Positions 1 to 32,000 are shown, counted from the stretch's first letter. The stretch is DNA of 32,000 nucleotides from Dickeya dadantii NCPPB 898 (GCF_000406145.1 NZ_CM001976.1:414830-446829); one strand, 5' to 3'. Numbers and translations are program-made. The notes: generated by a model not told the origin, from the sequence alone.

Positions 1-320
1 TCACGTTCTGGAGCGTCTGGCGCGGCGAGCAGATCGCCGGTATAGGAGCGCTGAAAATGCTGCCGGACGGCAGCGGAGAGCTGAAATCGATGCGTACCCA
101 CCCGCAGTGCCTGCGTCAGGGGGTGGCCGCGTGCCTGCTGGCCCATATTCTGGCCGAAGCGCGTCGGCGCGGCTTGCACCGCCTGAGTCTGGAAACCGGC
201 AGCGGTTCGGCGTTTGAACCGGCGCTGGCGCTGTATCGTCGGCACGGTTTTGTGAATGGCGAGGCATTTGCTGAGTATACGGCCAGCGAATTCAACCAGT
301 TTCTGCATCTGCCGCTGTAG
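1..320 (+). CDS. GNAT-family N-acetyltransferase, C-terminal part (5' end lies outside the window)
   Basis: The frame is open from position 3: TFWSVWRGEQIAGIGALKMLPDGSGELKSMRTHPQCLRQGVAACLLAHILAEARRRGLHRLSLETGS...YRRHGF. It shows an acetyl-CoA-binding-type RQGVA motif and the GNAT beta4-alpha3 pattern. Stop codon at 318-320. An acetyltransferase gene sits at the equivalent position near valS in E. coli. Confidence 0.7.
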   Translation, partial: TFWSVWRGEQIAGIGALKMLPDGSGELKSMRTHPQCLRQGVAACLLAHILAEARRRGLHRLSLETGSGSAFEPALALYRRHGFVNGEAFAEYTASEFNQFLHLPL

Positions 321-603
321 AGGATGGCCCGGTTTCTCTCTTTAACCTTCGCGCACAGGCGACAATATCGGCAACCGGAGGGTAACGGCGGGCTTTCTCT
401 GCGGTGAGCGGCGCATGCCTGAACAGAATCAGGACACGGATTGTTTCATGAGTATTGTTCAGGACTAAATTATATGCCGCGATAACTAAAATTGGCGGCA
501 TATAATTATTTTTTCAATGATTAGCAGGCGAGCATTATTGGGATATTTTACAGGAAACATTAACATCAGGGTCCCCCGCCTATGATTATGGAAGAGTTGT
601 TCT

Positions 604-1671: not shown

Positions 1672-1689
1672 CAGAAATTAACCGCGTCG

Positions 1690-1729
1690 GGCCGACGATA
1701 ACGACACAATAACGTCGGCCTTTCCTTTC
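1690..1729 (+). terminator. Putative rho-independent terminator after the hydrolase gene
   Basis: GGCCGACG (1690-1697) pairs with CGTCGGCC (1713-1720) and is followed by TTTCCTTTC. An alternative short palindrome CGTCGG-G-CCGACG lies at 1685-1697. Confidence 0.45.
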
Positions 1730-1812
1730 ATGATATTTCCTTTTCATTTTTGTTGCGGTTTACGTGTGAGCTGAAGCTCATGGTTTCTTATTACCAAACA
1801 ACAGGGACAATT

Positions 1813-3432: not shown

Positions 3433-3466
3433 CCCATAGATAGACGTTAGAATTACATCAATAAAA

Positions 3467-3496
3467 AGCCCCGCGATAACAAGCGGGGCTTTTACT
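3467..3496. terminator. Bidirectional rho-independent terminator between the MCP gene and valS
   Basis: AGCCCCGC (3467-3474) pairs with GCGGGGCT (3483-3490). An A-run lies upstream and a T-run downstream. The site sits between convergent genes. Confidence 0.6.
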
Positions 3497-3569
3497 TTTT
3501 GTCTCTCTCAGGCAAACACGGCATCAATCAAGACCGACGCAGCGTTGACTGCGTCAGTCGGCGACCTGA

Positions 3570-6437: not shown

Positions 6438-6441
6438 AAAG

Positions 6442-6891
6442 TCAGTGAGTTGGCGGCGTCGCCGTGGTCAATTGGAAGCCGACGCTGCGATAGGCCTTGT
6501 AGCGGTCGCGCGCCAACTGTTTCAGAGATTCTTCGTAAGGGACGAAGTCTATCACTTCATGGAAAGCGGTGGCAAAATCTGCGAACTGCGGCTGCAGGCT
6601 GATCAACAGGTCGCGCGGCGCGTTGCCGCGCTTCTGCGGCCAGGCCAGCTCCACCGGCGCGCCTTGCCGCGGCCCTTCTCCCGCCAGATTATGCGGCACG
6701 AATTCGTGAGGTTCGCGTTGCCACAGCGCCTCGTCCAGCCTCAATGCCTGCTGTTCATCCTCGCAGGCGATCAACACTCGCTGACCGGCACGCCAGCGCG
6801 CCGCCGCCAGGGAGCAGGCCAGCGCTTCGCAGGCGTTCAGCTCGCCGCTGGGGCGATCGTGATCAATAAGATAGAAGGTCGCGTTTTTCAT
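6442..6891 (-). CDS. holC: DNA polymerase III subunit chi
   Basis: The start is trimmed to the ATG at 6891. [12 protein letters not shown]...[19 protein letters not shown]...[11 protein letters not shown]...[33 protein letters not shown] closely parallels E. coli HolC as I recall it. The holC-valS arrangement is conserved. Confidence 0.93.
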
Positions 6892-7005
6892 GGTGCTCCG
6901 CATACCGATGAGGGTCACAGACAGAATAACAAATCCCCGCAAGCGCGGGGATCAGGCCGTAAAGGGATGAATACGCCACCGGCCGGCGGTGGCGATTGCC
7001 GATGA

Positions 7006-8697
<1,692 letters not shown>

Positions 8698-8797
8698 TTA
8701 GCTACGAAGGTTGCCACAAATGAGTGTAAATGGCGAGTTAGCGAAAAAACTATCGACTTTCCTGCAAAAATACAAGTTTTCACAGGCGTAATTAAGC

Positions 8798-9916
8798 GTG
8801 ATCATCATTCGATATCTGGTACGGGAAACCTTCAAGAGCCAGGTGGCCATTCTGTTTATCCTGTTACTGATTTTTTTCTGTCAGAAACTGGTGCGGATAC
8901 TGGGCGCTGCCGTGGACGGCGACATCCCGACAAACCTGGTTTTGTCCCTGCTGGGGCTGGGCGTGCCCGCGATGGCGCAACTGATTCTGCCGTTGAGCCT
9001 GTTCCTCGGGCTGCTGATGACCTTCGGGCGGCTCTACGCTGAAAGCGAAATCACCGTAATGCATGCCTGCGGGCTGAGCAAAGGCGTATTGCTTAAGGCC
9101 GCGCTGTTGCTGTCGCTGCTGACGGCGTCGTTCGCCGCCGCGAATGTGTTGTGGCTGAGCCCCTGGTCGTCGCGCCATCAGGACGAAGTGCTGGCGGAGG
9201 CGCGCGCCAACCCTGGCATGGCGTCGCTGGCGGAAGGCCAGTTCCAACAGACGCAGGACGGCAACTCGGTACTGTTCGTCGGCAAGGCGAATGGCAGTGA
9301 TTTTGAACGGGTGTTCCTGGCGCAATTGCATCCGCGCGAGAACACCCGGCCATCGGTAGTGGTGGCCGATCGCGGAACGGTCGCGGCACGCGGCGACGGC
9401 TCCCAGGTGGTGACGCTGAGCAAGGGGACGCGCTATGAAGGCACGGCGATGCTGCGGGATTTCCGTATCACCGATTTCATCGATTATCAGGCGATTATCG
9501 GCTACCAGCCGGTTGCGCTCGATCCGAACAACGTCGACCAGATGGATATGCAAACACTGTGGCGTTCGTCGGATATCGCCGCCCGAGCCGAGTTTCACTG
9601 GCGGTTGACGCTGATTCTGTCGGTGTTAGTCATGGCCATCATGGTGGTGCCGCTGAGTGTGGTTAACCCGCGTCAGGGCCGGGTGCTGAGCATGCTGCCC
9701 GCCATGCTGCTGTATCTGGTGTTCTTCCTGTTGCAGAGTTCGCTGCGCTCCAACGCCGGTAAAGGTAAGCTTGACCCGTTGGTGTGGATGTGGCTGACCA
9801 ATCTGGGCTATTTTGCGCTGGCTATCGCCCTGAATCTGTGGGACAGCCTGCCGGCGCGTAAAATTCGCGCCAGCCTGAAATCAGCCAACGGCCAGAAAAC
9901 GAAAGGAGCGGCCTAA
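8798..9916 (+). CDS. lptF: LPS export ABC transporter permease LptF
   Basis: GTG start. MIIIRYLVRETFKSQVAILFILLLIFFCQKLVRILGAAVDGDIP matches E. coli LptF (YjgP). The gene is divergent from pepA and is followed 1 nt later by lptG. Confidence 0.93.
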   Translation: MIIIRYLVRETFKSQVAILFILLLIFFCQKLVRILGAAVDGDIPTNLVLSLLGLGVPAMAQLILPLSLFLGLLMTFGRLYAESEITVMHACGLSKGVLLKAALLLSLLTASFAAANVLWLSPWSSRHQDEVLAEARANPGMASLAEGQFQQTQDGNSVLFVGKANGSDFERVFLAQLHPRENTRPSVVVADRGTVAARGDGSQVVTLSKGTRYEGTAMLRDFRITDFIDYQAIIGYQPVALDPNNVDQMDMQTLWRSSDIAARAEFHWRLTLILSVLVMAIMVVPLSVVNPRQGRVLSMLPAMLLYLVFFLLQSSLRSNAGKGKLDPLVWMWLTNLGYFALAIALNLWDSLPARKIRASLKSANGQKTKGAA

Positions 9917-9917
9917 G

Positions 9918-10988
9918 ATGTTTCGCGTACTGGACCGCTATATCGGTAAAACCATTTTCAACACCATCATGATGACGTTGTTCATGTTGGTGTCGCTGTC
10001 CGGCATCATCAAGTTTGTCGATCAGCTACGTAAAGTCGGGCAGGGCGGTTACTCGGTGATGGGCGCCGGGCTGTATACGCTGCTCAGCGTGCCGAAAGAC
10101 ATTGAGATTTTCTTCCCGATGGCTGCGCTGTTGGGCGCGCTGCTCGGGCTTGGCACCCTCGCCACCCGCAGCGAGCTGGTGGTGATGCAGGCTTCCGGCT
10201 TTACCCGCTTGCAGATTGCCGCCGCGGTGATGAAAACCGCCATTCCGCTGGTGTTGCTGACTATGGCGATTGGCGAATGGATGGCACCGGCGGGCGAGCA
10301 GATGGCCCGCAACTACCGTTCCCAGATGATGTACGGCGGCTCGATGCTCTCGACCCAAGGCGGGTTATGGGCCAAAGACGGCAATGATTTTGTCTACATC
10401 CAGCGGGTGGCGGGAGAAAACGAACTAGCCGGCGTCAATATCTACCACTTCGACAAACAAAGTAAACTGTTGTCGATACGCTACGCCGCATCGGCCCTGT
10501 ATGAGAACGGCACCTGGAAACTGTCTCAGGTTGAAGAGTCCGACCTGCGCGACAGCAAACAGATTGGCGGCAGCCAGACGGTGAGCGGCGAATGGAAAAC
10601 CAACCTGACGCCGGACAAGCTCGGCGTGGTGGCGCTGGATCCGGACGCGCTATCGATCCGCGGTCTGTTCGACTATATCAACTACTTGCACCAGAGCGGC
10701 CAGGAAGCGAGCCGCTATCAGCTCAACATGTGGAGCAAGCTGTTCGCCCCGCTGTCGGTGGCGGTGATGATGCTGATGGCGCTGTCATTTATTTTCGGCC
10801 CGCTACGCAGCGTGCCGGCCGGCGTGCGTATCGTGATCGGCATCAGCTTTGGTTTTCTGTTCTACGTGCTGGACCAAATCTTCGGCCCGCTCAGTCTGGT
10901 GTACCACATTCCGCCGGTGCTGGGGGCGTCGCTGCCGAGCGCACTGTTCCTGTTTATCAGCATCATGCTGCTGCTGAAACGGCGCTGA
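9918..10988 (+). CDS. lptG: LPS export ABC transporter permease LptG
   Basis: MFRVLDRYIGKTIFNTIMMTLFMLVSLSGIIKFVDQLRKVG is a YjgQ/LptG-type N-terminus. The product is a multi-TM protein. The gene lies immediately after lptF, as in the conserved operon. Confidence 0.93.
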   Translation: MFRVLDRYIGKTIFNTIMMTLFMLVSLSGIIKFVDQLRKVGQGGYSVMGAGLYTLLSVPKDIEIFFPMAALLGALLGLGTLATRSELVVMQASGFTRLQIAAAVMKTAIPLVLLTMAIGEWMAPAGEQMARNYRSQMMYGGSMLSTQGGLWAKDGNDFVYIQRVAGENELAGVNIYHFDKQSKLLSIRYAASALYENGTWKLSQVEESDLRDSKQIGGSQTVSGEWKTNLTPDKLGVVALDPDALSIRGLFDYINYLHQSGQEASRYQLNMWSKLFAPLSVAVMMLMALSFIFGPLRSVPAGVRIVIGISFGFLFYVLDQIFGPLSLVYHIPPVLGASLPSALFLFISIMLLLKRR

Positions 10989-11003
10989 TTCACCTTTCCC
11001 ACT

Positions 11004-11350: not shown

Positions 11351-11435
11351 GCCGAAGTGGCGAAATCGGTAGACGCAGTTGATTCAAAATCAACCGTAGA
11401 AATACGTGCCGGTTCGAGTCCGGCCTTCGGCACCA
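11351..11435 (+). tRNA. leuX: tRNA-Leu (anticodon CAA)
   Basis: GCCGAAGTGGCGAAATCGGTAGACGCAGTTGATTCAAAATCAACCGTAGAAATACGTGCCGGTTCGAGTCCGGCCTTCGGCACCA has an acceptor stem GCCGAAG/CTTCGGC, anticodon loop TTCAAAA, a long variable arm and an encoded CCA. It matches E. coli leuX as I recall it. Confidence 0.93.
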
Positions 11436-11466
11436 AAATTCAAAAATCAAGCCATCTTCGGGTGGC
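11413..11466 (+). repeat. Direct repeat DR1 (attL): tRNA-Leu 3' end plus downstream hairpin
   Basis: TTCGAGTCCGGCCTTCGGCACCAAAATTCAAAAATCAAGCCATCTTCGGGTGGC recurs at 31948-32000 with one 1-nt deletion and one substitution. Its core recurs at 17594-17611. Confidence 0.85.
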
Positions 11467-11654: not shown

Positions 11655-12923
11655 ATGGCCCTGACTGACGTTGTTGCTCGTACCGCTAAGCCCCGCGAGA
11701 AAGCCTACAAGCTTGCGGATGCACATGGCCTGTACCTTCTGGTGAGTCCTAACGGTTCTAAGCGCTGGTATCTCAAGTACCGTTTCGACGGTAAGGAAAG
11801 CCGGATTGCTTTCGGTGCCTACCCGCTGATCTCGCTGGCGAAGGCCAGGGAGAAACGCAACGAGGTGCGATTACTGCTGTCAGAAGGCATCCACCCAACG
11901 GAAAAGCGGGAAGAAGAGAAAGAACAGGCACAGGATGCACTGAACACCTTTGAAAAGGTGGCAAGAGACTGGCACCGAAACATCAGCCAAAACCGATGGT
12001 CACAAACACACGCCGGACGGGTATGGCGTGACATGGAGCGCAATATTCTGCCTGCCATCGGCCAGCGCCACATCGCTGACCTGAAAACCAAAGACCTGCT
12101 TGAACCGCTTAAAGCCGTGGAGCAAAACGGCCATCTTGATTTGGCGTCGCGGCTACGCCAGCGCGTTACCGATATCATGCGTTACGCGGTACAAAATGAC
12201 CTGATAGAGCGCAACCCGGCGCAGGATCTCACCGGGGCGATAGCTGCGCCAAAGGCAACGCATCGGCCAGCCTTGAAGCTCGATAAACTGCCTGGCTTTC
12301 TGGCACGGATTGAACGCTACAAAGGGCGAGCGTTAACCCGATTGGCTTTAAAACTCACCCTGTGCGTTTTTATCCGTTCCAGTGAGCTACGCTTTGCCCG
12401 TTGGCCGGAAATCGACTTTAAACGTGCGATGTGGACGATACCGCCCGAACGTGAAGCCATCCCCGGAGTGAAACACTCACAGCGTGGTGCAAAGATGCGC
12501 TCTGAACATTTGGTGCCGTTATCCCGACAGGCTTTAGCACTGTTGGAAGAGATTAAGGCTATCAGCGGCGCTCACGAACTGATCTTCCCCGGCGACCACC
12601 GACCAACCAAACCGATGAGTGAAAACACCATCAACAGTGCATTGCGAACAATGGGCTATGACACTACCACCGAAGTATGCGGACACGGCTTCCGCACGAT
12701 GGCCTGTAGCGCGTTGGTTGAGTCCGGTCAGTGGTCGCGGGATGCGGTAGAGCGGCAAATGAGCCATCAGGAACGCAATGGCGTCCGTGCTGCTTATATC
12801 TATAAAGCGGAACATCTTGAGGAACGCAAGCTGATGCTGCAATGGTGGGCAGATTATCTGGATGCCAACCGGGAAGAGCATGTCGTGCCGTATGAGTTTA
12901 TAAATCGTGGTGTAAAAGCATAA
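11655..12923 (+). CDS. P4-type tyrosine integrase (DUF4102 N-terminal domain plus phage integrase catalytic domain)
   Basis: MALTDVVARTAKPREKAYKLADAHGLYLLVSPNGSKRWYLKYRF is a typical P4/CP4 integrase N-terminus. The C-terminal catalytic signature is HGFRTMACSALVESG...RQMSH...VRAAYIYKAEHLEERKLMLQWWADYLD. The gene lies next to the tRNA. Confidence 0.93.
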   Translation: MALTDVVARTAKPREKAYKLADAHGLYLLVSPNGSKRWYLKYRFDGKESRIAFGAYPLISLAKAREKRNEVRLLLSEGIHPTEKREEEKEQAQDALNTFEKVARDWHRNISQNRWSQTHAGRVWRDMERNILPAIGQRHIADLKTKDLLEPLKAVEQNGHLDLASRLRQRVTDIMRYAVQNDLIERNPAQDLTGAIAAPKATHRPALKLDKLPGFLARIERYKGRALTRLALKLTLCVFIRSSELRFARWPEIDFKRAMWTIPPEREAIPGVKHSQRGAKMRSEHLVPLSRQALALLEEIKAISGAHELIFPGDHRPTKPMSENTINSALRTMGYDTTTEVCGHGFRTMACSALVESGQWSRDAVERQMSHQERNGVRAAYIYKAEHLEERKLMLQWWADYLDANREEHVVPYEFINRGVKA

Positions 12924-13021
12924 AAGACAATTATTTATAACAATAAATCATAACTAATTAACGTTTATCTTTTCCCGATATTCTACTATTAGATAATAGT
13001 AATCATGGAAAGGTAAATGCT

Positions 13022-14239
13022 ATGTATAATGAAGACGTTAAGGAATTTGCGAAAGAAGAAGAGAAAAAACTATTAAGCTTGGACTGTCGCTACTTTACCG
13101 AAGATAGTCGGCGTTCAGTTGATAGAGATCCATTTATGCGTGATTACGCACGGATTCTTTATTCGTCATCTTTTCGGCGCTTACAGGGAAAGATGCAACT
13201 TTTAGATATAGATCCAAGCAAATTTACAAGAAATAGATTAACGCATAGCTTAGAGGTTGCGCAAATTGCACGCTCAATAGCTACAGATTTAGGCTTAGAA
13301 AACCCCGTGGTTGCTGAATCAGCATCTTTAGCTCATGATCTTGGTAATCCACCATTCGGCCATAATGGTGAAAAAATTTTAAATGAACTTATAAAAGATC
13401 AAGGCGGATTTGAGGGTAATGCACAGACGTTTAGGATATTAAGAATACTAGAAAAAAAACATCATTCTTTTTCCGGATTAAATCTTACTCTTCGAACAAT
13501 GCTGTCAGTAACTAAATATTTTAATAGGAAGGGATTAAGTAATAAAAAATTTATTTATGATGATGATTTTCAGTTCTTAAGTGATGAATTAAATAAAAGG
13601 AACATAGGTATTATTAAAAGTATTGATGCTCAGATTATGGATATTGCCGATGAAATTGCTTATGCTGCGCATGATTTAGAGGATGCTTTAAGCATGAATT
13701 ATATAACTATGGGCGAGCTTTTGCATGAGTTTAAGATAAGTGTTGAATTTAAGGATGCGTTTGATGATATAAGTGAGATATATGAAATGGTTCATAAGGA
13801 TGCGTTATTATCTCATAGGCTTTGTACTTCTGAAGAATTTGCGTTGATTGAAAGAAAAGAATTGACTTCAAATATAGTTAATGTTCTCTGTAATGATATA
13901 GATATAGTCAAAGATGATAATAGTATATCCTTGTTAGGATATAGAACGAAAAGTAAGTTAGCTGTAGGCTTGAAGAAGCTTTTGTTTAAAGCTGTTTTGA
14001 GAAAAAGAAATATACAATTTTATGAGTTAAAGGGTGAGAATATAATTAAAGGTCTTTTTGAAGTTTATACTAGTGCATTAAATAGGAATAATCTATTATT
14101 TCCCCCTGAGATAAGAAATTTACCTGATTCTAAGGAAAAGTTAGCTATAGATCATATCGCAGGTATGATGGATTCGTTTGCTATTCAGGAGTATGAACGA
14201 TTCTTTGGCATTGGTAGCGCTAATATAATAATGAAATAA
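13022..14239 (+). CDS. Dgt-like HD-domain dNTP triphosphohydrolase (dGTPase family)
   Basis: 405-aa ORF with an RBS GGAAAGG upstream. Motifs are DPFMRDYARILYSSSFRRLQGKMQL, RNRLTHSLEVAQIARSIA (His of HD) and ASLAHDLGNPPFGHNGE (HD plus GHxGE), characteristic of the dGTPase/SAMHD1-like family. Later IMDIADEIAYAAHDLEDAL is also present. Confidence 0.85.
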   Translation: MYNEDVKEFAKEEEKKLLSLDCRYFTEDSRRSVDRDPFMRDYARILYSSSFRRLQGKMQLLDIDPSKFTRNRLTHSLEVAQIARSIATDLGLENPVVAESASLAHDLGNPPFGHNGEKILNELIKDQGGFEGNAQTFRILRILEKKHHSFSGLNLTLRTMLSVTKYFNRKGLSNKKFIYDDDFQFLSDELNKRNIGIIKSIDAQIMDIADEIAYAAHDLEDALSMNYITMGELLHEFKISVEFKDAFDDISEIYEMVHKDALLSHRLCTSEEFALIERKELTSNIVNVLCNDIDIVKDDNSISLLGYRTKSKLAVGLKKLLFKAVLRKRNIQFYELKGENIIKGLFEVYTSALNRNNLLFPPEIRNLPDSKEKLAIDHIAGMMDSFAIQEYERFFGIGSANIIMK

Positions 14240-14282
14240 TTGCCATTTGGTTTTTATAAAAACAAATAAAATGAGATATTAT

Positions 14283-15911
14283 ATGAAAAAACCTCAACCT
14301 AGAAAGGAAAAGCTTTCTATATATCTCGTAAGAAATGCCAATAAAAAAGATGATGAATTCATAAAAATAGATAAGGCTAAAAATGGAATTGAGATAAAAT
14401 TAGATGGAGTTGATTATGCATTTCTATATGCAAAAAATAGTTTTAAAAATACTCCATCTTGGACAAAATTGTTTACTCATTATGAGCATATAAATGCAGA
14501 TTATTTTGGTATGTCTAGCAACGTTGGTGCTGTTTTTGTTGTTAGAGCTTTTGGGTATGCTTTTATTTTATCATTTGGTTCCGGTTTTCACTTAATAAAA
14601 GATGAAGAAATAGAAAGGGACTTCGGTTTAAGAGTAACATTAAATTCAGTTGATCCAGACAAACTGAGAAGCTTAGATAAAGCTAGTTATGATCATAATC
14701 CTTTAAATTCCCGAACGCAAAGTACAAAAGATGTAGATATTTTTAATCTTCATTTAGATTCAGAGTCAGAGTTGCTTTACGCAGTAACTGGGACTTCTTT
14801 GGTTAAAGAATTTGGTAGTCAAGTTACTGGGAGAGATGCTCTCACACTTGCAGTTGATATTACTTTGGAACAAATATCAGGAATTCTTCATGAAGCAATT
14901 TCGAGATATAAGAAAAAACTACCTGATAAGTTTTCTTGGGTTGAGAATATCAACAGGGTTCGTGATCAAGATGAAATTGATATTCTTGATTTGGAGTTGG
15001 ATGACTATTTTTCATCTGGGTGTTATACCAATTTTTGGTTAGGAGAACCTGAGATAGTTGATTGGGAGGGGCAAGTTGGATATTCGTTTGATATGTATCC
15101 CAGAACACCTAGGTATATTATTTTGACATTAGATGATTATATAGAATATCTTAATGGTGAGCCCATTTCTGTATTCAGGCTTAAGGGTGACGTTATTCAT
15201 ATAAATAATAGTGATTTTATATCAACCAAATCTTGGTCTGTATATAGATGTTTGTATGCTGAAATAATTTTTGGTGATGCGTATTATATATTAAGAAATG
15301 GAGTGTGGTATAAAATAAATCAAGATTTTGTTAACTCTGTTGATGAATATCTCGTTGATTTAAGTGATTATGATTTTGATTTTCCTATCTATGATCATGA
15401 AAGAGAAGATATTTATAACGATTACCTTTGTAAAAATTATTCTAACTTTTCTTTAATGGATAAAAAGAATATAGCAATAGGTGGAGTATACGATAAATTG
15501 GAACATTGTGATCTTATTCGAAATGGATGTGATTTTATTCATGTTAAATATTACAGAAGCTCTGGTACATTAAGTCATTTATTCTTTCAAGGTATGGTTG
15601 CCGCAGAAGCATTCATTAAGGACAAAGATTATAGAAAAAAGTTAAACCCTAAATTGCCTGAATCCATAAGATTAGATGATGTAAACTCAAGGCCAAATCC
15701 CAATAAATATAAAGTTGTTTATGCTATAGCGACAGTTAAGAACCTGCCACAGGAATTACCTTTCTTTTCTAAAGTAACATTAAAAAACACTCTAAAGACA
15801 TTAAAGGCCTTGGGTTATATTGTATCAATAGCAAGAATTGATATATCTCCTATAATTCTTAAGATTAAGAAATGCAAGCCTAAAAAATATCATCTTAATA
15901 ATTTTAATTAA
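14283..15911 (+). CDS. Uncharacterised large protein, possibly the TIGR04141/DUF6119 'sporadically distributed' family (unverified)
   Basis: The ORF is open from 14247 (TTG). ATG 14283 (MKKPQPRKEKLSIYLV) or ATG 14271 is a more plausible start. It begins less than 50 nt after the dNTPase stop, on the same strand, with the same extreme AT-richness. Conserved-looking blocks are FGSGFHLIKDEEIERDFGLRVTLNSVDPDKLRSLDK and, in the C-terminal half, LEHCDLIRNGCDFIHVKYY...FFQG. The family name comes from memory only. Confidence 0.7.
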   Translation: MKKPQPRKEKLSIYLVRNANKKDDEFIKIDKAKNGIEIKLDGVDYAFLYAKNSFKNTPSWTKLFTHYEHINADYFGMSSNVGAVFVVRAFGYAFILSFGSGFHLIKDEEIERDFGLRVTLNSVDPDKLRSLDKASYDHNPLNSRTQSTKDVDIFNLHLDSESELLYAVTGTSLVKEFGSQVTGRDALTLAVDITLEQISGILHEAISRYKKKLPDKFSWVENINRVRDQDEIDILDLELDDYFSSGCYTNFWLGEPEIVDWEGQVGYSFDMYPRTPRYIILTLDDYIEYLNGEPISVFRLKGDVIHINNSDFISTKSWSVYRCLYAEIIFGDAYYILRNGVWYKINQDFVNSVDEYLVDLSDYDFDFPIYDHEREDIYNDYLCKNYSNFSLMDKKNIAIGGVYDKLEHCDLIRNGCDFIHVKYYRSSGTLSHLFFQGMVAAEAFIKDKDYRKKLNPKLPESIRLDDVNSRPNPNKYKVVYAIATVKNLPQELPFFSKVTLKNTLKTLKALGYIVSIARIDISPIILKIKKCKPKKYHLNNFN

Positions 15912-15995
15912 TATAAATTTAATGAGGATATTCGGAATGACTTTAAATTTTTAAAAATCATTGCGTTGATTTTTTAATCAATTTGTTCTTGTTTC

Positions 15996-16037
15996 CACCG
16001 CGCCCGCCCCCTCCCCAAAAAGGGGGCGGGCGCGGTG
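15996..16037. terminator. Perfect GC-rich hairpin between convergent genes (bidirectional terminator or module junction)
   Basis: CACCGCGCCCGCCCCC (15996-16011) is the exact reverse complement of GGGGGCGGGCGCGGTG (16022-16037), with loop TCCCCAAAAA. It is embedded in AT-rich DNA. Confidence 0.6.
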
Positions 16038-16134: not shown

Positions 16135-16536
16135 TTATTTTAAATCAGCATGCTTAAATGTTTGTTCGCCAGCCTGGCTATTTGTCATTTTTAGCATGCT
16201 ATTCTCTTCTGTATAAGTGATTAAGGCGTCATTCGGGTTATCTCGCCAACGGCCTATGTAGTTAGGTTCCGAATCACTTCCAGCGGTTCGCCATAGCACT
16301 CGTGACCCTTCTATCATCTTGCACTGATATTTCCACAGGCTATTATCACTTGGCCTGTGATATTGCAAATTAACGAGATCCCCATTCACTTTTGTTTTCA
16401 TTATTTTGGGTTCTTTTGCGAACTCCATTGACATGGCTGCTTTACAGATTTCAGCATTCGAGAAGGGAGCTGAAAAAGCGGGAATAGCCATTAATGAGGT
16501 ACTTAAAATCAGAGAGAACTTAATTAAATGCTTCAT
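16135..16536 (-). CDS. Small secreted/periplasmic protein of unknown function
   Basis: 133-aa ORF with a Sec signal peptide MKHLIKFSLILSTSLMAIPAFS/AP and two Cys residues in the mature part. I recognise no family. Confidence 0.65.
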   Translation of the reverse strand: MKHLIKFSLILSTSLMAIPAFSAPFSNAEICKAAMSMEFAKEPKIMKTKVNGDLVNLQYHRPSDNSLWKYQCKMIEGSRVLWRTAGSDSEPNYIGRWRDNPNDALITYTEENSMLKMTNSQAGEQTFKHADLK

Positions 16537-16564: not shown

Positions 16565-17044
16565 TTACCATAACGATAATAATAAGGTGTGTTCCTGTAT
16601 TTCTGACGGGACAAAACCCCAGTATTGGTAGAACGCTTTTGCCTCATCAGATAACGCATGTACCAATAACGCTTTGTTGCCTACCTGCTGCGCTACATTG
16701 CGGGAGCGGAGTACCGCATCTTTCAGAAGCCCGGCACCGATCCCCATACGTTGATAACGTTCATCAACGGCTAATCGGCCAAGTACCAGAACAGGAATGG
16801 GGTCAGGCATATTGCGCCGGAATGCGCCCGGTGCAACCTGACGCTGGATGCTACCCGACGCGAGGGCATAGAACCCCACCACACGCTGTGTACCGGCTTC
16901 ACACACCACGAAGGTGCGTGAAGCGCCCAGCGTCTGATTTTTTAACGCCTTGCGTTTCAGCCATTCATTCAATGACGGCTCGGAACAATGAAAATCCACA
17001 ACTGCATGTTGAGGCAGCAATAATTCAGGTGCCGTTATTCCCAC
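16565..17044 (-). CDS. GNAT-family acetyltransferase toxin (TacT/KacT-like type II toxin)
   Basis: 159-aa ORF with a GNAT core (RLAVDERYQRMGIGAGLLKDAV...AFYQYWGF). It overlaps the upstream DUF1778-type antitoxin gene by 10 nt, the canonical TacAT arrangement. Confidence 0.85.
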   Translation of the reverse strand: MGITAPELLLPQHAVVDFHCSEPSLNEWLKRKALKNQTLGASRTFVVCEAGTQRVVGFYALASGSIQRQVAPGAFRRNMPDPIPVLVLGRLAVDERYQRMGIGAGLLKDAVLRSRNVAQQVGNKALLVHALSDEAKAFYQYWGFVPSEIQEHTLLLSLW

Positions 17045-17307
17045 GGAGATTTCCTGTTCAGTAATGCATTCACACGCGGATTATCTGTGACTGGTGATTC
17101 CAACACCTGAATGAAAGCATCATATTGTTCATCATTGACCAGAAACAGCCTTTGATCCAACAACACATCCTCAGCCTCACGGCAGGCAGCATCAAGGATA
17201 AACTCTGTTCTTGATTTCGACAGCAATTTAGCGGCGACATCAATCAGCTCCCGCTGTGATGCTTTAGCACGAATATTAATCGGCATTTCTTTTGGCTCTG
17301 TTCGCAT
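17035..17307 (-). CDS. DUF1778-family (TacA/KacA-like) antitoxin
   Basis: The start is trimmed to the ATG at 17307 (RBS AGAGAGG). MRTEPKEMPINIRAKASQRELIDVAAKLLSKSRTEFILDAACREAEDVLLDQRLFLVNDEQYDAFIQVLESP is a ribbon-helix-helix type and matches the DUF1778 pattern (I.lR......li..AA...g.s.teFil..a...A..vl.d). Confidence 0.85.
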   Translation of the reverse strand: MRTEPKEMPINIRAKASQRELIDVAAKLLSKSRTEFILDAACREAEDVLLDQRLFLVNDEQYDAFIQVLESPVTDNPRVNALLNRKSPWE

Positions 17308-17593
17308 CGTGACCTCTCTGTGTAGCGAATAGCTATACATCCAGTATAGTGAACGGTACAGCAAATAGCCACACGCCATTCATGAACAACATTTTCGTCA
17401 TAGCGGGGTTGGGTTAGGATCTGTTACACGGAATCGAACCGGAACGGATAAGAATTAATCTTATTGATAAAATGACGTGATATAGCTCATTGAAAACATG
17501 GGCTAAAAATGAAGTGGGGGCATAAAAGGGGGCACCTAAATTAGGTTGGTGAGTATTAAATTTTATTATTCAATCAATTACATCATTTTGCGT

Positions 17594-17611
17594 GTCCGGC
17601 CTTCGCACCAA
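17594..17611 (+). repeat. Direct repeat DR2: 18-nt remnant of the tRNA-Leu 3' end (junction of segments A and B)
   Basis: GTCCGGCCTTCGCACCAA equals tRNA positions 11418-11436 minus one G. It carries the same 1-nt deletion as DR3. Confidence 0.75.
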
Positions 17612-17623
17612 CAGTATATAAAT

Positions 17624-17796: not shown

Positions 17797-18255
17797 ATGG
17801 CGCTCACTGATATCAAAGTCAGAACAGCCAAGCCTTCGGATAAGCAATACAAGCTGACCGACGGCAATGGTATGCATCTGCTGGTTCATCCCAATGGCTC
17901 AAAGTATTGGCGCTTTCGTTTCGGTGGTAAACAGCACCTGATAGCGTTTGGCGTCTATCCCGAAGTTTCACTGGCTGATGCCAGACATAAAAGAGAAGCT
18001 GCCAGTGGACTGACCCCGCCACGGCTTTCGCACCATGGCCTGTAGCTTACTGATTGAATCAGGATTATGGTCGAGGGATGCGATGGAACGGCAGATGAGC
18101 CACATGGAGCGCAACTCGGTACGAGCGGCGTATATCCTAAAGCTGAGTATCTGGATGAGCGTAAGCTTATGCTGCAATGGTGGGCAGATTTTCTGGATGC
18201 TAATAGGGAAAAGGCGGTGAGTGCGTTTGATTTTGGTAAGATAAAAAGTCGTTAG
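17797..18255 (+). pseudogene. P4-type integrase pseudogene (large internal deletion plus frameshift)
   Basis: The N-terminal roughly 65 aa (MALTDIKVRTAKPSDKQYKLTDGNGMHLLVHPNGSKYW...SLADARHKREAA) align with the intact integrase at 11655. At about 18000-18030 the sequence jumps to the C-terminal HGFRTMACSLLIESGLWSRDAMERQMSHMERNSVRAAYI, which is in another frame. A further frameshift near 18135 precedes AEYLDERKLMLQWWADFLDANRE. Confidence 0.85.
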
Positions 18256-18281: not shown

Positions 18282-19139
18282 ATGTATACGGATGAGTTAT
18301 TGGCTATTCAATCTGATTGGTCAAAAAAATCATTGTTATTAATGAGAAAACTTCTAACATTAATGACTCCGGTTGCTTTATTTGACCAATGGACTAAAGA
18401 AGAGCAAAGTACGATTGGTTTTTTGCTTGCTGCATCAGCAAGGTCAACAGAAAGTCTATTTTTATTGACCTCATATGGGCAGCTTTGGGACGCAGAAATG
18501 ATGCAAAGGGCTATCATTGAAGCATCGTTAAAATTTGTATTTCTTCTTGAATCTAGAGAAACATTTAAAGATAGGTTTAATGAATACTCAACAGCGCAAT
18601 ACGAGATATCCCTACTCAAGGATGATAATAAGGTTTTAGAGCTATTAAGCATCCTGCCTAACTCTGATGATGAAAAATGGCTCCCTTTGCGGGAACGTTT
18701 GCTTGCTGATGAGGAAAGAAAAATGATTAATGAAACGTACGATAAAAGTTATCGCAGATCTCTTGAAACGCGATGGGGGTTTACTAGTATTATAGGAAGT
18801 TTGACCCGTAGCGGAAAACTATTTCATGGGTTAAGTGAATTATCATATGGGTACTCTGTATCAAGCCATGTTCTACATGCCGATTATTTAGGGGTAGTAC
18901 TACCGATTGAAAGAGATAGTAGAGAGCATGAGAATCGATCTGCTTTACATTTGGCTCATTTGAGTAGACATATCTCTGATGCTTTCACATGCCTGATCAT
19001 GCGACTATATGCTGGATATCGATTTGTCGGGATAGATACGGCGGCCATAAATGAAGCTATTAAGAAAATAGATGATCTACAGGTACCATTTCGTGAAGAA
19101 TATAATAAATGGATAGATATAGAATACGGAGGTAAATAG
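18282..19139 (+). CDS. Hypothetical protein (AT-rich orphan)
   Basis: 285-aa ORF with an RBS AGGGGA upstream. It looks helical by eye and has no signal peptide. I cannot assign a family with confidence. Confidence 0.65.
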   Translation: MYTDELLAIQSDWSKKSLLLMRKLLTLMTPVALFDQWTKEEQSTIGFLLAASARSTESLFLLTSYGQLWDAEMMQRAIIEASLKFVFLLESRETFKDRFNEYSTAQYEISLLKDDNKVLELLSILPNSDDEKWLPLRERLLADEERKMINETYDKSYRRSLETRWGFTSIIGSLTRSGKLFHGLSELSYGYSVSSHVLHADYLGVVLPIERDSREHENRSALHLAHLSRHISDAFTCLIMRLYAGYRFVGIDTAAINEAIKKIDDLQVPFREEYNKWIDIEYGGK

Positions 19140-19685: not shown

Positions 19686-21887
19686 ATGGGGTCTCGAACT
19701 TTGGATAGCATTGTGGGAAAGCTCAATCCGCTATTGCGGCTAGCAGCCATCTCGGGCGTCGAAGCTGCGATCACATTCCATATTCTTCGGGGTGATGACT
19801 TGGATGCCCGCGATAGCAGTGGCTCAACGCCTCTGATCCTCGCCGCATCTAGGAGAAACAGCGGGGCTGTAAGGCTTCTACTTGACGCGGGGGCAAATCC
19901 GACACTTGTCGATCCAGAAGGGATGAATGCTCTAGCGCATGCCTTACGAGCCAATTGCCTAGAGACAATTGAGATACTAAGTGAGGCATTCAATATGCCA
20001 CCCTTGGAGGCCACTGAGTCAGATGAAGTAATTACCAACAATCAGGAAAAGATATCCTCTTGCTTCGATAAAATATCTGATGGCCAGGCATCGGGGAGCG
20101 AATCCCACGCAGTGGGCAAGAATATCCCTACCTCTCCTGAATATCACTTCGAGCCCATTTCCCCCAAGGCAACGACTCGATATATTTTTGAAGTCGATTC
20201 CCTTTCTCTAGATCCTCTTTCCTTGGATGCTGAATTTGAGGACAACTGGGAAGTTGAGATTAACCCTGTTGCGCCTGTTGGTGACCAACATGTTGCAGAG
20301 GCCGTCAAGAATGTTTACAAGGCGATAGGTCAACATAAGGCAGTAGATAACGACGAGGACTGGGGTGATATCGATCTCTATCTTCCTGTAATAAAATCCA
20401 TTTTAGACCATGAGGGCGTTGATTATACCCTCCGGGTTTTCCTCCTTGCAGCAATCCGCGATGGGATTATTTCTGAAGAAAACCTTGTTGAACTTTGCTT
20501 AAACGCCAACGGATCACGCAATGAAGATTTTGAGAGATTCATTGGTATTGCTGCAGGAGAGCTTGGTGCGATTGTGGACGAACAGAGTGGAGTCACTATA
20601 AATGATACCTCTCTCGATGAGTCGTCTCTTGAGGAAAAACTCCTTCTCGATGAAGCAATTGAGTTCATCAAGGATCTAGCCTCGGATCACAATGAACCGT
20701 TCAGATTTTATTCCAAGGATATCCGATGCAGGCTTCTTGAGGCCAAAGAAGAGATCGCTCTTAGTCGAGAGATGGAAGAGGCTTGGCAAGATGTGCTATC
20801 GGTCCTTGCTCAATGGCCAGAAGGACTCGCGGTGTTATTTGACTGTGCTGAAAAGGTTTTGAGAGGGGAGGTTGATGCTGGAGCGTTCAGCACTGGACCT
20901 GATTTGCTCCTAGAAGATGGGGCAACAGAACTGGAGGATGTGTACGATGAGGATGAAGAGGAAAAAGAGCATGATGCCGGCTCAGCATTTATGACTGCTA
21001 TAGCAGCCGTTCGGAGTAAGATTGGAGACTTCCAGCGAACCAAAGAAGCATTAGAAGCGGCTAAGCTAACTCGCGGATTTCTTTTTGAGCTAGCCGAACG
21101 AGCCAAAGATGATTCTAATGCAAAGGGCCTTACTGATGCTCTTGAGCGGCAGTCCTATGCTCGGGATCGCTTGATTCAGTGTAATCTTAGACTCGCTTTA
21201 TCCATTGCCAAGAAGCACCGGTGGTCAGGAGTGCCGATGGACGATCTTGTTCAAGAGGCAAACATTGGCCTTATAAAAGCGGTTGAACGCTACGACTGGC
21301 GCAGAGGTTTTCGCTTCTCTACATACGCAACGTGGTGGATTCGTCAACAGATAACACGTTCCATTGCTGACAAAAGTAGGAGTGTTAGGGCACCGGTACA
21401 CGTTCAGGATAAGGCTTGGAAGATCATACGGGAGCGCAATGAGATCGAGTTGCAGAGAGGGTACCCTGAGCGTGATATCGACACAGCTTCGCGGCTCGGA
21501 ATTCCGCTATCAAAAATATGGATTCTCCTGTCGATATTTGATGATGCAGAGTCTCTTGATGAGATCGATTTGAATATGAGTTGTGCTCGAGTGGAGCTTC
21601 TCGTGAATCGGAATGCCTCGGCACCATTTAAGCTTGTTGAGAATTCGTCTCTCTCCTCTACGCTCTCGGGAATGCTGGAAGAGTTAGATGAAAGGTCTCG
21701 CACAGTGATTATGTATCGCTTTGGATTAGGCAACATTGACGCGATGACCTTGGAAGAGGTAGGGCAGATCTTCGGGGTTACACGTGAGCGTATCCGCCAA
21801 ATAGAGTCCAAAGCGATGCAGAAACTTTCTAGTGAGAAAAGGAAGGAGATCTTGGCTTCCTTTATGAGCGAGGATGATTATCAATAA
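19686..21887 (+). CDS. Ankyrin-repeat / sigma-70-family (RpoD/RpoS-like, regions 1.2-2-3-4) fusion protein
   Basis: N-terminal ANK consensus: GSTPLILAASRRNSGAVRLLLDAGANPTLVDPEGMNALAHALRANCLETIEIL (nt about 19815-19975). Region 1.2-like: FRFYSKDIRCRLLEAKEEIALSREME. Region 2: LIQCNLRLALSIAKKH...DLVQEANIGLIKAVERYDWRRGFRFSTYATWWIRQQITRSIADKSRSVRAPVHV (nt about 21170-21400), near-identical in pattern to E. coli sigma-70 region 2. Region 4.2: TLEEVGQIFGVTRERIRQIESKAMQKL (nt about 21747-21825). Its stop codon overlaps the next gene's ATG (TAATG, 21885-21889). Confidence 0.85.
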   Translation: MGSRTLDSIVGKLNPLLRLAAISGVEAAITFHILRGDDLDARDSSGSTPLILAASRRNSGAVRLLLDAGANPTLVDPEGMNALAHALRANCLETIEILSEAFNMPPLEATESDEVITNNQEKISSCFDKISDGQASGSESHAVGKNIPTSPEYHFEPISPKATTRYIFEVDSLSLDPLSLDAEFEDNWEVEINPVAPVGDQHVAEAVKNVYKAIGQHKAVDNDEDWGDIDLYLPVIKSILDHEGVDYTLRVFLLAAIRDGIISEENLVELCLNANGSRNEDFERFIGIAAGELGAIVDEQSGVTINDTSLDESSLEEKLLLDEAIEFIKDLASDHNEPFRFYSKDIRCRLLEAKEEIALSREMEEAWQDVLSVLAQWPEGLAVLFDCAEKVLRGEVDAGAFSTGPDLLLEDGATELEDVYDEDEEEKEHDAGSAFMTAIAAVRSKIGDFQRTKEALEAAKLTRGFLFELAERAKDDSNAKGLTDALERQSYARDRLIQCNLRLALSIAKKHRWSGVPMDDLVQEANIGLIKAVERYDWRRGFRFSTYATWWIRQQITRSIADKSRSVRAPVHVQDKAWKIIRERNEIELQRGYPERDIDTASRLGIPLSKIWILLSIFDDAESLDEIDLNMSCARVELLVNRNASAPFKLVENSSLSSTLSGMLEELDERSRTVIMYRFGLGNIDAMTLEEVGQIFGVTRERIRQIESKAMQKLSSEKRKEILASFMSEDDYQ

Positions 21888-23380
21888 TGCAGAAAACCAG
21901 ATATGCGCCGCCGAAAGCCAATGCAATGATGGAGGCTCTCAGAGGGCTCGGTTATTCAACCGCAGCAGCCTTGGCTGATGTTGTAGACAACGCTGTGTCT
22001 GCAGGTTCTGCAGAGGTGTATCTGCGATTTGAATGGGATGGAACGCAAAGCTGTATTTCGATACTAGATGATGGTCATGGAATGACTGATACCGAGCTTG
22101 AGACTGCCATGACCCTTGGGACGATAAATCCTTTGGATGAAAGGACTGCGACTGATCTCGGACGTTTTGGTATGGGTCTGAAGACTGCCTCGTTTTCCCA
22201 ATGCCGTAGGCTTACTGTTGCTTCCAAGCGAGAAGGCGGAGTTCTGGTTTGTTTACGCTGGGACTTGGACGCTATCGCTACAGATCCGCAGGTTGGTTGG
22301 CGTATGTTCGAGGGACCAGCATTAGGCTCCGAGCGGTTCTTTGAACCGCTAAACGACTTAAGCTCGGGGACGCTCGTTCTTTGGGAATTAATGGACAGAG
22401 TTGTCATGCCCGGTACGAACTTGGATCACTTTGCCGACCTAATTGATGATGTGGAATCCCGTTTATCGATGACCTTCCATCGCCTTATTGAGGGGCCTCG
22501 CCCAGATTTCCGCCTGTTCATCAATGGCAAACTGGTGGTCCCTTGGGATCCGTTCATGGTTGGCCACCCTGCTAAAGCCTTGGAATCTCCCATAGAGCGC
22601 AGAATCACTCAGTCAGGAGTTTTGGAGGTCCAATGCCATGTTCTCCCGCACAAAGATAAATTATCTGACGAGGATCTTTTCAAGGCTGGCGGCCCTGACG
22701 GCTGGATATCTCAGCAAGGGTTCTATGTCTATCGTAACAAAAGACTCCTTCTGGCCGGTAGTTGGCTAGGGCTTGGAAGAGGGAGAGCATGGAGCAGGGA
22801 TGAATCGCATCGACTTGCGAGAATCCGGGTTGATATGCCGAATACCGCCGACGCAGATTGGAAGATCGATGTTAAGAAGTCCACTGCCCGACCACCGGTT
22901 TTTGTCCGTAACTGGTTGACTGGAATAGCAGAAAACACGAGAGACAGAGCTCGTAAGGTATTCGCCTTCCGAGGATCGCCGACGTCTAGGTTGAGCAGTG
23001 CTCCCATCGAGCAGACTTGGCGGGTTGAACATCTGAAGAGCGGCGTTCGATACCGCATAGATGAGACGCACCCTGCCGTCGCGGCAGTTATTGAGGTTTG
23101 TTCAGACCGAAAGCATCTTGTTAGAGCGATGCTCCGGGTTATTGAGGAGACAGTCCCTGTCCAACGGATATGGCTCGATACTGCCGAGAACAAGGACACT
23201 CCTAGAACAGGGTTTGATGGGGAACCGAACGAAGCTGTTATACAGGTTGCGAGTGTCCTTTTTAATGATTTGATCGAGCGCAAGGGACTGAGTGTTGAGG
23301 AAGCCCGTAAGTCAATGCTCAAGACTGAGCCCTTCCAAAAATATCCCTCACTAATTGCAAATTTACAGAGAGATGAATGA
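21887..23380 (+). CDS. MORC-like GHKL (HATPase_c_3-type) ATPase
   Basis: Bergerat-fold motifs are an N-box ALADVVDNAVSAGS (nt about 21974-22006), a G1 box DDGHGM (22068-22085) and a G2 box GRFGMGLKTAS. Start and stop are coupled to the neighbouring genes (TAATG upstream, ATGA downstream). Confidence 0.85.
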   Translation: MQKTRYAPPKANAMMEALRGLGYSTAAALADVVDNAVSAGSAEVYLRFEWDGTQSCISILDDGHGMTDTELETAMTLGTINPLDERTATDLGRFGMGLKTASFSQCRRLTVASKREGGVLVCLRWDLDAIATDPQVGWRMFEGPALGSERFFEPLNDLSSGTLVLWELMDRVVMPGTNLDHFADLIDDVESRLSMTFHRLIEGPRPDFRLFINGKLVVPWDPFMVGHPAKALESPIERRITQSGVLEVQCHVLPHKDKLSDEDLFKAGGPDGWISQQGFYVYRNKRLLLAGSWLGLGRGRAWSRDESHRLARIRVDMPNTADADWKIDVKKSTARPPVFVRNWLTGIAENTRDRARKVFAFRGSPTSRLSSAPIEQTWRVEHLKSGVRYRIDETHPAVAAVIEVCSDRKHLVRAMLRVIEETVPVQRIWLDTAENKDTPRTGFDGEPNEAVIQVASVLFNDLIERKGLSVEEARKSMLKTEPFQKYPSLIANLQRDE

Positions 23381-31947: not shown

Positions 31948-32000
31948 TTCGAGTCCGGCCTTCGCACCAAAATTCAAAAATCAAGCCACCTTCGGGTGGC
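31948..32000 (+). repeat. Direct repeat DR3 (attR): displaced tRNA-Leu 3' end plus terminator hairpin, running to the window edge
   Basis: TTCGAGTCCGGCCTTCGCACCAAAATTCAAAAATCAAGCCACCTTCGGGTGGC. Relative to DR1 it has one G deleted (CTTCGGCACC to CTTCGCACC) and one T to C change that perfects the hairpin GCCACC/GGTGGC. Confidence 0.85.

Follow-up and report, generated by a model that had tools for sequence, protein, structure and literature searches.

A Vdg-type dGTPase and a DUF6119 protein are probable independent cargo of a small tRNA-Leu(CAA) island in Dickeya dadantii

Dickeya dadantii NCPPB 898 carries two adjacent AT-rich genes at positions 13022 to 15911 of a 32,000-nt stretch (NZ_CM001976.1:414830-446829; here called the window, with positions counted from its first letter). 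One encodes a dGTP triphosphohydrolase (dGTPase), and the other encodes a protein of the DUF6119/TIGR04141 family. An initial annotation made from the sequence regarded them as a dedicated two-component variant of the known dGTPase defenses, in which the second protein would serve as a sensor, a regulator, or a second effector. Our analysis favors a different account. The explanation that we consider likely overall is that a ~6.2-kb tRNA-Leu(CAA) island carries the two as single-gene cargo modules, stacked but independent, and on the narrower point, that the dGTPase and the DUF6119 protein are independent of each other, we are strongly inclined to agree with the comparative evidence. The two genes, the integrase gene that precedes them, and the domain discussed below are as follows (ORF, open reading frame; AF2, AlphaFold2).

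11655..12923, plus strand: P4-type tyrosine integrase of island 1, 422 aa (ORF; homology to Brenneria and Edaphovirga integrases)
13022..14239, plus strand: Vdg-type dGTP triphosphohydrolase, 405 aa (HD plus HD_assoc, TIGR01353, PADLOC dGTPase, PDB 9VWA)
14283..15911, plus strand: DUF6119/TIGR04141 protein, 542 aa from ATG (PF19614, TIGR04141; start taken from the homologue alignment)
15360..15911, plus strand: C-terminal domain of the DUF6119 protein, residues 372-554 in ORF numbering (AF2 domain model, invariant residues)

The physical description given by the initial annotation held up. The dGTPase gene lies directly after the integrase gene, beginning 99 nt past its stop codon, and the second gene follows on the same strand at a distance of less than 50 nt. 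Mechanical translation gives the latter as an ORF at 14247..15911 (plus strand) of 554 aa from a TTG codon; homologues are ~538 aa long and their alignment starts at MKKPQ, which points to ATG at 14283 as the likely start and to a product of 542 aa. Counted from the dGTPase stop codon at 14239, the TTG start leaves a gap of 7 nt and the ATG start one of 43 nt. The atypical composition was likewise borne out: GC content is 27 to 37% per 500-nt window across 13001-16000 and 31.0% for the two-gene segment overall, against 55 to 66% in most 500-nt windows of the flanking core (positions 1-11000, where a few fall to 46 to 47%). We rejected this common low GC as proof that the genes form a unit, because DUF6119 genes are AT rich relative to their flanks almost everywhere. 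The median DUF6119 gene has 39.6% GC and its flanks 54.7%; the median deficit is 11 points, and 57 of 72 loci have a deficit of more than 5 points.

The first gene is a 405-aa HD-domain dGTPase with both motifs (THSLEVAQIARS and AHDLGNPPFGHNGE) intact, as had been read from the sequence. The protein matches PF01966 HD (7.5e-13), PF13286 HD_assoc (9.8e-12), TIGR01353 dGTP_triPase (1.5e-98, 330.9 bits against a cut-off of 152), and the PADLOC dGTPase model (1.9e-110). A 100% identical protein is on record from Dickeya dadantii, and a contig index returned no entry for this exact protein. Its nearest solved relative is Vdg (PDB 9VWA/9VWC/9VWG; E 6e-153, full length, 60% identity), a validated antiphage enzyme, in keeping with the earlier view of the gene as a defense-type dGTPase. 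Vdg, the dGTPase of Vibrio cholerae O1, forms a square octamer, hydrolyzes dGTP, is regulated allosterically by dAMP, and as a lone gene shields Escherichia coli from T2, T4, T5, T6, T7, and phiX174; the H114A substitution abolishes protection (Shi et al., Nat Commun 2026, PMC13519002). We took the functional residues of Vdg from that paper and mapped them onto the window protein by alignment. The catalytic and metal-binding residues H75, H105, D106, H114, E117, and D207 are all identical (6/6), as are those of the dGTP pocket (Q59, L60, N133, K165, Y166, K176, Y214, D218, and E330; 9/9) and of the dAMP pocket (R31, R35, R40, R44, Y47, Q81, K146, and V286; 8/8). Judged by this alignment, every residue required for Vdg-like dGTP hydrolysis and dAMP regulation is present, and a Vdg-like mechanism is highly probable. 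The enzyme would convert dGTP to deoxyguanosine and triphosphate by means of the His114/Glu117 dyad and the HD metal site, with its activity tuned by dAMP at the dimer interface, and the resulting drain of dGTP would block phage DNA replication through the dGTPase alone, with no partner required.

The initial annotation had likened the second protein to TIGR04141/DUF6119, and this assignment proved correct, with matches over the full length. It matches TIGR04141 at 4e-158 (527 bits against a cut-off of 35; profile positions 1-516 of 516) and PF19614 DUF6119 at 6.6e-128 (428 bits against a cut-off of 27; positions 1-524 of 524); the libraries list the function as unknown. Searches for other relationships were negative: PADLOC 2.0 gave no match, phmmer and a profile search against the PDB gave no sequence link, and three segments of the protein compared with Pfam at E <= 10 matched no other family. 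The literature contained nothing relevant on DUF6119 or TIGR04141, neither a defense link nor a phenotype, and papers using the family names were unrelated. The family itself is extensive. A profile built from 35 diverse members retrieved 5,442 representative clusters at E <= 1e-3 and 2,759 at E <= 1e-30, and the best 150 of the 5,442 were all proteins of 490 to 571 aa matched end to end, without fusions. The protein also matches a PHROG of unknown function, and one homologue (locus L171:4992-6701), 26% identical over 90% coverage, is annotated as hypothetical in Pseudomonas phage vB_PaeS-D14B (BK061476.1 38375-40084), with an integrase gene on each side of it, close to where the record ends.

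We then asked what accompanies DUF6119 genes. The census took one genome per species and comprised 75 loci with flanks of up to 8 kb each, all from Gamma-, Beta-, and Alphaproteobacteria except for one Coriobacteriia and one Acidobacteriaceae metagenome-assembled genome (MAG). A dGTPase gene lies within 8 kb in only one of the 75, that of Edaphovirga cremea (L001), the closest DUF6119 relative of the set; tblastn with the window dGTPase picks up relatives down to ~31% identity in other loci. When neighbors up to four genes away from DUF6119 in either direction were clustered for 73 loci, no recurrent partner emerged. The sole recurrent neighbor family, found at varying positions in 12 loci, is integrase-like and includes a 417-aa ORF of the Edaphovirga locus that is 90% identical to the window integrase. 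A Pfam and PADLOC survey of 123 neighbors returned integrases, resolvases, ParB/RepB, type I and II methyltransferases, Mrr, Fic, and unrelated genes, and one DUF6119 gene lies directly after a small helix-turn-helix gene. The 26 same-strand neighbors at a gap of <= 60 nt, from 23 of the 73 loci, are all different. A model in which DUF6119 works with interchangeable effectors was rejected, since these tight neighbors are mutually unrelated and include housekeeping genes and an integrase. A small ORF upstream of DUF6119 in six enterobacterial loci was also considered as a conserved partner and set aside, as these looked like spurious low-complexity reading frames. DUF6119/TIGR04141 is thus a very large, architecturally uniform, horizontally mobile family without a conserved partner.

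Two distant members have neighbors that touch on nucleotide metabolism or defense. In the Acidobacteriaceae MAG (L074:8022-10172), 12 nt downstream of a DUF6119 gene whose product is 32% identical, there is a same-strand gene for a 189-aa protein of the dCMP-deaminase family. The protein is ComEB-like (1.9e-24) and matches the antiphage dCTP deaminase model in its deaminase portion, at 81 bits against the cut-off of 400; it is the only other nucleotide-pool enzyme seen beside DUF6119, a single case and no pattern. At a second locus (L170:5001-9973), a CBASS pair, consisting of a DncV-like nucleotidyltransferase and a SAVED effector, is encoded on the opposite strand, two to three genes farther downstream, and an HNH gene and several ORFs without a family match lie upstream.

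The converse survey, of dGTPase genes, gave a similar picture. Among dGTPase loci from metagenomes, DUF6119 was present in 0 of 80, a result that is weak on its own because only 3 of these loci reach >= 55% identity. It was also absent beside all seven Vdg-clade dGTPases that were looked up on genome or metagenome contigs. In Vibrionaceae the dGTPase stands alone in three contexts, one of which resembles an array of short same-strand cassettes; it is alone as well on two metagenome contigs, and in Yersinia ruckeri a 700-aa ORC/CDC6-like gene converges on it. Among 5,426 complete E. coli genomes, 382 carry a related accessory dGTPase of 408 aa, with no match in those 382 reaching into DUF6119. 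Neither of the two E. coli contexts that were inspected (L172, L173) has DUF6119: one is a defense island with Avs3 and a CHAT-domain gene, and in the other the dGTPase gene adjoins the integrase of an apparent prophage inserted near yjjG. The solitary state of clade members in genomes supports single-gene autonomy of the Vdg-type dGTPase.

Some Vdg-clade genes have other close neighbors on the same strand. A radical-SAM gene lies 41 nt upstream in Pseudomonas guariconensis (L166:2589-5221), a SIR2_2 gene 36 nt upstream in Neptuniibacter (L168:3176-5212), and a CAP12-PCTIR TIR-like gene ~400 nt downstream in Colwellia (L174:3501-5937).

A direct argument for autonomy comes from one site, between amj and purL, that can be compared in two near-identical backgrounds. 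The flanks of a Janthinobacterium kumbetense locus (L031:7099-13908) and of a metagenome contig (L177:2598-8221) share 88 to 95% nucleotide identity, and their PurL and Amj proteins are 98% and 92% identical, respectively. The metagenome contig has only a Vdg-type dGTPase at this site and J. kumbetense has only DUF6119. This alternative occupancy indicates that each gene is a single-gene occupant in its own right, and the swap also suggests, by association, that DUF6119 is cargo of the defense-gene sort. Taken with the two surveys, it shows that DUF6119 needs no dGTPase and that Vdg-type dGTPases need no DUF6119. The claim of a dedicated two-component variant is not supported by this comparison, as homologues of the two genes are not co-localized at the other loci examined save in one collinear island lineage, the outcome that the initial annotation had itself named as refuting the claim.

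What the DUF6119 protein might do by itself is suggested mainly by its C-terminal domain. The initial annotation had described a nuclease-like pattern in this half of the protein; the pattern exists, but its spacer is 7 residues and not 10 (EHCD-x7-FIHVK...Q). In 35 members extending to ~30% identity, E387, Y390, E419, D422, K434, S439, LSHLF (442-446), Q448, G449, P505, and F507 are invariant, so that four residues of the pattern (E419, D422, K434, and Q448) are conserved throughout, and H432 is nearly invariant. The invariant polar residues cluster mostly in the C-terminal domain. An AF2 model of this domain alone (residues 372-554) has an alpha/beta fold with a predicted local distance difference test (pLDDT) score of 95.3; it places E387 on a helix, D422 at the start of a strand, H432-x-K434 on the next strand, and Q448 on the following helix. 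A helix-strand-strand-helix order is what is expected of such conserved residues in a restriction-endonuclease-like core. The model of the full-length protein is moderate (pLDDT 73.6), and Foldseek found nothing significant with it. Its most sequence-invariant stretch, residues 138-184 (14658-14798; KLRSLDKASYDHNPLNSRTQS...DSE), has a pLDDT of < 50; these residues may fold only once a ligand, nucleic acid, or another subunit is bound. A Pol-beta-like reading (G-[SG]...D-x-D) of the N-terminal FGSG...ERD was rejected by eye, as the acidic residues are not kept in distant members.

At the level of fold, the best matches are PD-(D/E)XK domains: the CdiA-CT nuclease domains of E. coli EC869 and Yersinia pseudotuberculosis (4G6U, 4ZQU) and Hef/XPF (1J24, 2BGW), which we take to be domains of restriction-endonuclease type. 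CdiA-CT was matched at E 0.067 with the full-length model and at 5.9e-3 with the domain model, the best PDB match, and Hef/XPF at E 0.07 to 0.2. A viral fold library (BFVD) returned an uncharacterized protein at 8.6e-4 and proteins annotated as PD-(D/E)XK or restriction endonucleases at E 0.06 to 0.1. The E, D, x-K, Q order on helix-strand-strand-helix is comparable in the two cases. There are differences as well: the PD-(D/E)XK matches are nonsignificant (E 6e-3 to 0.2) with no sequence-level relationship, H432 occupies the position of the usual D/E of (D/E)xK, and DUF6119 has ~370 further N-terminal residues without recognizable relatives. We therefore also considered that the protein is not a nuclease, that the C-terminal residues bind a ligand or catalyze another reaction, and that the likeness in fold is fortuitous. 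This would explain why a model with a pLDDT of 95 finds no PDB match at E <= 1e-3 (template modeling [TM] scores are 0.24 to 0.33), why the profile finds nothing among PDB sequences, and why a histidine replaces the acidic residue. It would leave to chance, however, that CdiA-CT from two species, Hef, XPF, and PD-(D/E)XK- or restriction-annotated proteins all stand near the top of three fold searches and that the order of the conserved residues fits the superfamily layout, and we regard it as somewhat unlikely. A putative restriction-endonuclease-like nuclease is, on the models, a plausible but not established identity for the domain. In such a scheme, the N-terminal two thirds of the protein would recognize a target and the C-terminal domain (E387, E419, D422, H432-x-K434, and Q448) would cut nucleic acid, making DUF6119 a self-contained sensor and effector, for defense or for competition among mobile elements. 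A defense role of this nuclease type is suggested only tentatively, at somewhat less than an even chance, and we hold the broader idea that DUF6119 is an unrecognized single-gene defense system with the same reserve.

The two genes could also be independent and DUF6119 not be antiphage at all, acting instead in element maintenance or competitor exclusion, as an addiction-type toxin, or in an unrelated cellular role. Its distribution offers some reasons to think so. DUF6119 is found on 23 records of a plasmid collection, mainly rhizobial replicons (large plasmids and chromids), 11 of them typed as conjugative; in Enterobacterales it adjoins ParB/RepB-like genes and serine recombinases; and both PADLOC 2.0 and the literature lack any entry that would link it to defense. 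Other settings argue the opposite. DUF6119 alternates with a bona fide defense gene at the amj-purL hotspot, it recurs in defense-rich surroundings (CBASS, restriction-modification methyltransferases, and Mrr elsewhere; the dGTPase, a toxin-antitoxin pair, and the Mza system of a tandem island here), two integrase genes flank it in a Pseudomonas phage, and it is markedly richer in AT than its flanks, as is much cargo that moves horizontally. On balance, we judge a role outside phage defense to be decidedly unlikely.

Less probable still is a coupling of the two proteins that is specific to one lineage, in which DUF6119 would be either a nuclease yielding the dAMP activator or a sensor or restraint of the dGTPase. 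The latter would resemble CloB, the nucleotidyltransferase (NTase) that accompanies the CloA dGTPase in the Clover system, a precedent for a regulated dGTPase (Yamaguchi et al., bioRxiv 2025, PMC12265719). The lineage is defined by three genomes. In Brenneria goodwinii (L082), which was found via its 87%-identical DUF6119 protein, the gene order is pepA, lptF, lptG, integrase (with Arm-DNA-bind_3, Phage_int_M, and Phage_integrase domains), dGTPase, and DUF6119. Dickeya, Brenneria, and Edaphovirga are collinear over ~4.7 kb, from the tRNA end through integrase, dGTPase, and DUF6119, at 87% (Brenneria) and 77% (Edaphovirga) nucleotide identity. Relative to the window, the Brenneria and Edaphovirga proteins are 94 and 90% identical for the integrase, 91 and 75% for the dGTPase, and 87 and 77% for DUF6119. 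Since all three pair-bearing genomes have this same 4.7-kb island, they represent one lineage and one origin of the adjacency.

Coupling would account for the same-strand arrangement with its 43-nt gap, for the retention of adjacency in three genera at ~75 to 77% protein identity, and for the preservation of all eight dAMP-pocket residues in a relative of the dAMP-activated Vdg; the deaminase gene 12 nt after DUF6119 in the Acidobacteriaceae MAG could be added as a second pairing with a nucleotide enzyme. Other observations speak against coupling. Co-localization is confined to one island lineage (1/75), and each gene occurs alone at the amj-purL hotspot in near-identical backgrounds. Vdg works alone in E. 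coli, while CloA alone is toxic (PMC12265719). Neither protein has an extra domain, a change in length, or a loss of invariant residues compared with its solitary relatives, DUF6119 lacks a nucleotidyltransferase signature, and the deaminase is a lone case that scores far below its model's cut-off. We consider lineage-specific coupling very unlikely. A full relay, in which a DUF6119 nuclease would attack invading or host DNA on infection and the deoxynucleoside monophosphates set free, above all dAMP, would occupy the fully conserved allosteric pocket of the dGTPase and switch on dGTP depletion, is conceivable because the pair stayed together to ~75% identity and because dAMP is what a DNase ultimately releases, but we give it only a small chance, the lowest of all these accounts.

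The reading of two independent modules has evidence to contend with, and we list it here. The adjacency was kept, at a gap of 26 to 44 nt, while the proteins diverged to ~75% identity between Dickeya and Edaphovirga, and there is no terminator between the dGTPase and DUF6119 genes; promoter and terminator scans gave counts equal to those for shuffled sequence and were uninformative. Selection for joint function could underlie this adjacency, and tight linkage on a minimal island explains it. The census sampled one genome per species, mostly Proteobacteria, so that rarer pairings could escape. Within the Vdg clade, the window dGTPase forms a divergent branch, at 60% identity to Vdg as against 74 to 87% for solitary members, and its octameric state and stand-alone activity are extrapolated from Vdg. 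For DUF6119, the literature contains no defense phenotype, the nuclease fold matches are weak (best PDB E 5.9e-3, TM 0.24 to 0.33) with no sequence-level link to nucleases, and H432 stands where an acidic residue is usual. With these points in the balance, we still favor independent cargo, and the two genes are probably co-transcribed merely through side-by-side capture in one island lineage.

Three points are of wider use. The dGTPase extends the Vdg class to plant-pathogenic Pectobacteriaceae, on a small tRNA-Leu(CAA) island. DUF6119 is a reasonable candidate for a single-gene defense or anti-mobile-element protein, because the family is large, uniform, partner-less, and mobile, shares a hotspot with a defense gene, and has an invariant acidic/lysine cluster. 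The amj-purL comparison illustrates that alternative occupancy of a hotspot can tell accidental neighbors from partners. A dedicated pair, were it real, would be a second kind of partnered dGTPase defense after Clover, and the comparative evidence argues against it; the relay would link two responses, first the degradation of DNA and then nucleotide starvation.

The wider setting of the pair in the window is given below. The core ends with lptF and lptG (8798-10988), which are followed by tRNA-Leu(CAA).

11351..11435, plus strand: tRNA-Leu(CAA), integration target of both islands (ARAGORN)
11413-11466: attL, the tRNA 3' end plus bases downstream (direct-repeat search)
16135..16536, minus strand: 133-aa ORF without a family, with a hydrophobic, signal-peptide-like N terminus (MKHLIKFSLILSTSLMAIPAFSAP...)
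16565-17044, minus strand: GNAT acetyltransferase toxin-like gene (Acetyltransf_7, _10, _1)
17035-17379, minus strand: TacA-like antitoxin (Pfam TacA1, 1.7e-21)
17589..17621, plus strand: degenerate copy of the tRNA-Leu 3' end, 67% identity (direct-repeat family D4), at the junction of island 1 and the older island 2
17797-18045 (N-terminal 82 aa) and 18020-18234 (C-terminal): remnants of a second P4-type integrase (ORFs, repeats)
18282-19139: DUF5677 protein, 285 aa, AT rich (33 to 44% GC), start of island 2
19686-21887: MzaA (PADLOC, 3.5e-62)
21887-23380: MzaB (PADLOC, 1.1e-173)
23377-26286: MzaC (PADLOC, 2.7e-302)
26159-27283: MzaD (PADLOC, 1.4e-55)
27280-29106: MzaE (PADLOC, 6.5e-208)
29204-30775, minus strand: C5 DNA methyltransferase of island 2
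31948..32000, plus strand: attR, a repeat of the tRNA-Leu 3' end plus downstream bases (families D3, 97%, and D4, 79%)

The direct repeat at 11413-11466 is seen again at 31948-32000 (79 to 97% identity), and the integrase remnant region resembles 12684-12899 at 74 to 76% identity. The repeats at 11413-11466, 17589-17621, and 31948-32000, together with the remnants of the second integrase, reveal two islands in tandem and indicate that island 1 was inserted ahead of an older one. With a tyrosine integrase beside the tRNA gene and direct repeats of the tRNA end as its bounds, island 1 is a tRNA-targeting integrative element with a P4-type integrase. Its ~6.2 kb hold the integrase, the dGTPase, DUF6119, the 133-aa ORF, and the TacA-like/GNAT pair. 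The 133-aa ORF had no match in Pfam, PHROG, or PADLOC and was not found in the Edaphovirga (L001) or Brenneria (L082) locus, the latter of which stops ~590 bp past DUF6119. At the distal end of the island, the TacA-like antitoxin gene overlaps the GNAT gene, forming a TacAT-type toxin-antitoxin pair; no homologue of this pair was present in the fetched Brenneria and Edaphovirga loci, with the same limit to the Brenneria locus. The ~14.3 kb of island 2 hold the DUF5677 gene, for which a PADLOC scan gave no match, MzaABCDE, and the C5 methyltransferase; with MzaA to MzaE and the methyltransferase all present, the Mza system is complete. The MzaA protein of island 2 (733 aa) consists of N-terminal ankyrin repeats fused to sigma-70 regions 2 and 4. 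The entire locus is a defense island.

Among known systems, Clover is the sole described defensive dGTPase having a dedicated partner, and the window pair resembles it in having two genes, in having the HD-domain dGTPase first, and in its defense-island setting. The differences are more extensive. CloB is a small NTase of the Pol-beta superfamily with a [D/E]h[D/E]...h[D/E]h motif, whereas the partner here is a 542-aa DUF6119 protein; the Clover operon is ~2.2 kb long and the window pair spans 2.9 kb. The window dGTPase matches the CloA structures 9P8S-V at E 4.5e-24 to 6e-22, whereas its match to Vdg is at 6e-153. Related dNTPase-NTase systems number more than 650, from diverse lineages (PMC12265719), in contrast to the single island lineage with a dGTPase-DUF6119 adjacency. 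We rejected membership in Clover, as the partner matched no NTase family at E <= 10 in three segments and no NTase fold, and the dGTPase is not CloA-like. The preprint prints the CloA PDB codes as 8P9S-8P9V, and the matching chains, entitled "DNTP triphosphohydrolase," are 9P8S-9P8V; the printed codes appear to contain transposed characters.

The dGTPase of Shewanella putrefaciens CN-32 (PDB 9P8W; credited to Tal et al. 2022) is a second point of reference, matched by the window dGTPase at E 6.6e-44. It is likewise a single-gene, nucleotide-depleting antiphage dGTPase of the same superfamily as the window enzyme. It differs in being described as a hexamer and not an octamer, is 462 aa long, and is far more distant than Vdg.

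Vdg itself is the closest counterpart. The window protein (405 aa) and Vdg (402 aa) are nearly equal in length and identical in domain architecture, and relatives are single-gene cargo of variable regions. By homology to Vdg, the window dGTPase would assemble into an octamer. Nine of 14 octamer-interface positions are identical (H235, E236, S270, E271, R322, K323, E342, Y344, and E386); of the others, K324->R, A264->S, and Y382->F are conservative, and Y374->H and D346->gap are not. Of the four residues involved in octamer stacking, three differ, with C127, C366, and N364 being Q, S, and P in the window protein, and the stacking residues are dispensable in Vdg (PMC13519002). The window dGTPase also has a 5-residue insertion near residue 297, and it is followed by DUF6119, whereas the Vdg-clade genes examined elsewhere are not. 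Its sequence places the window dGTPase clearly, if as a divergent member, in the already described Vdg class.

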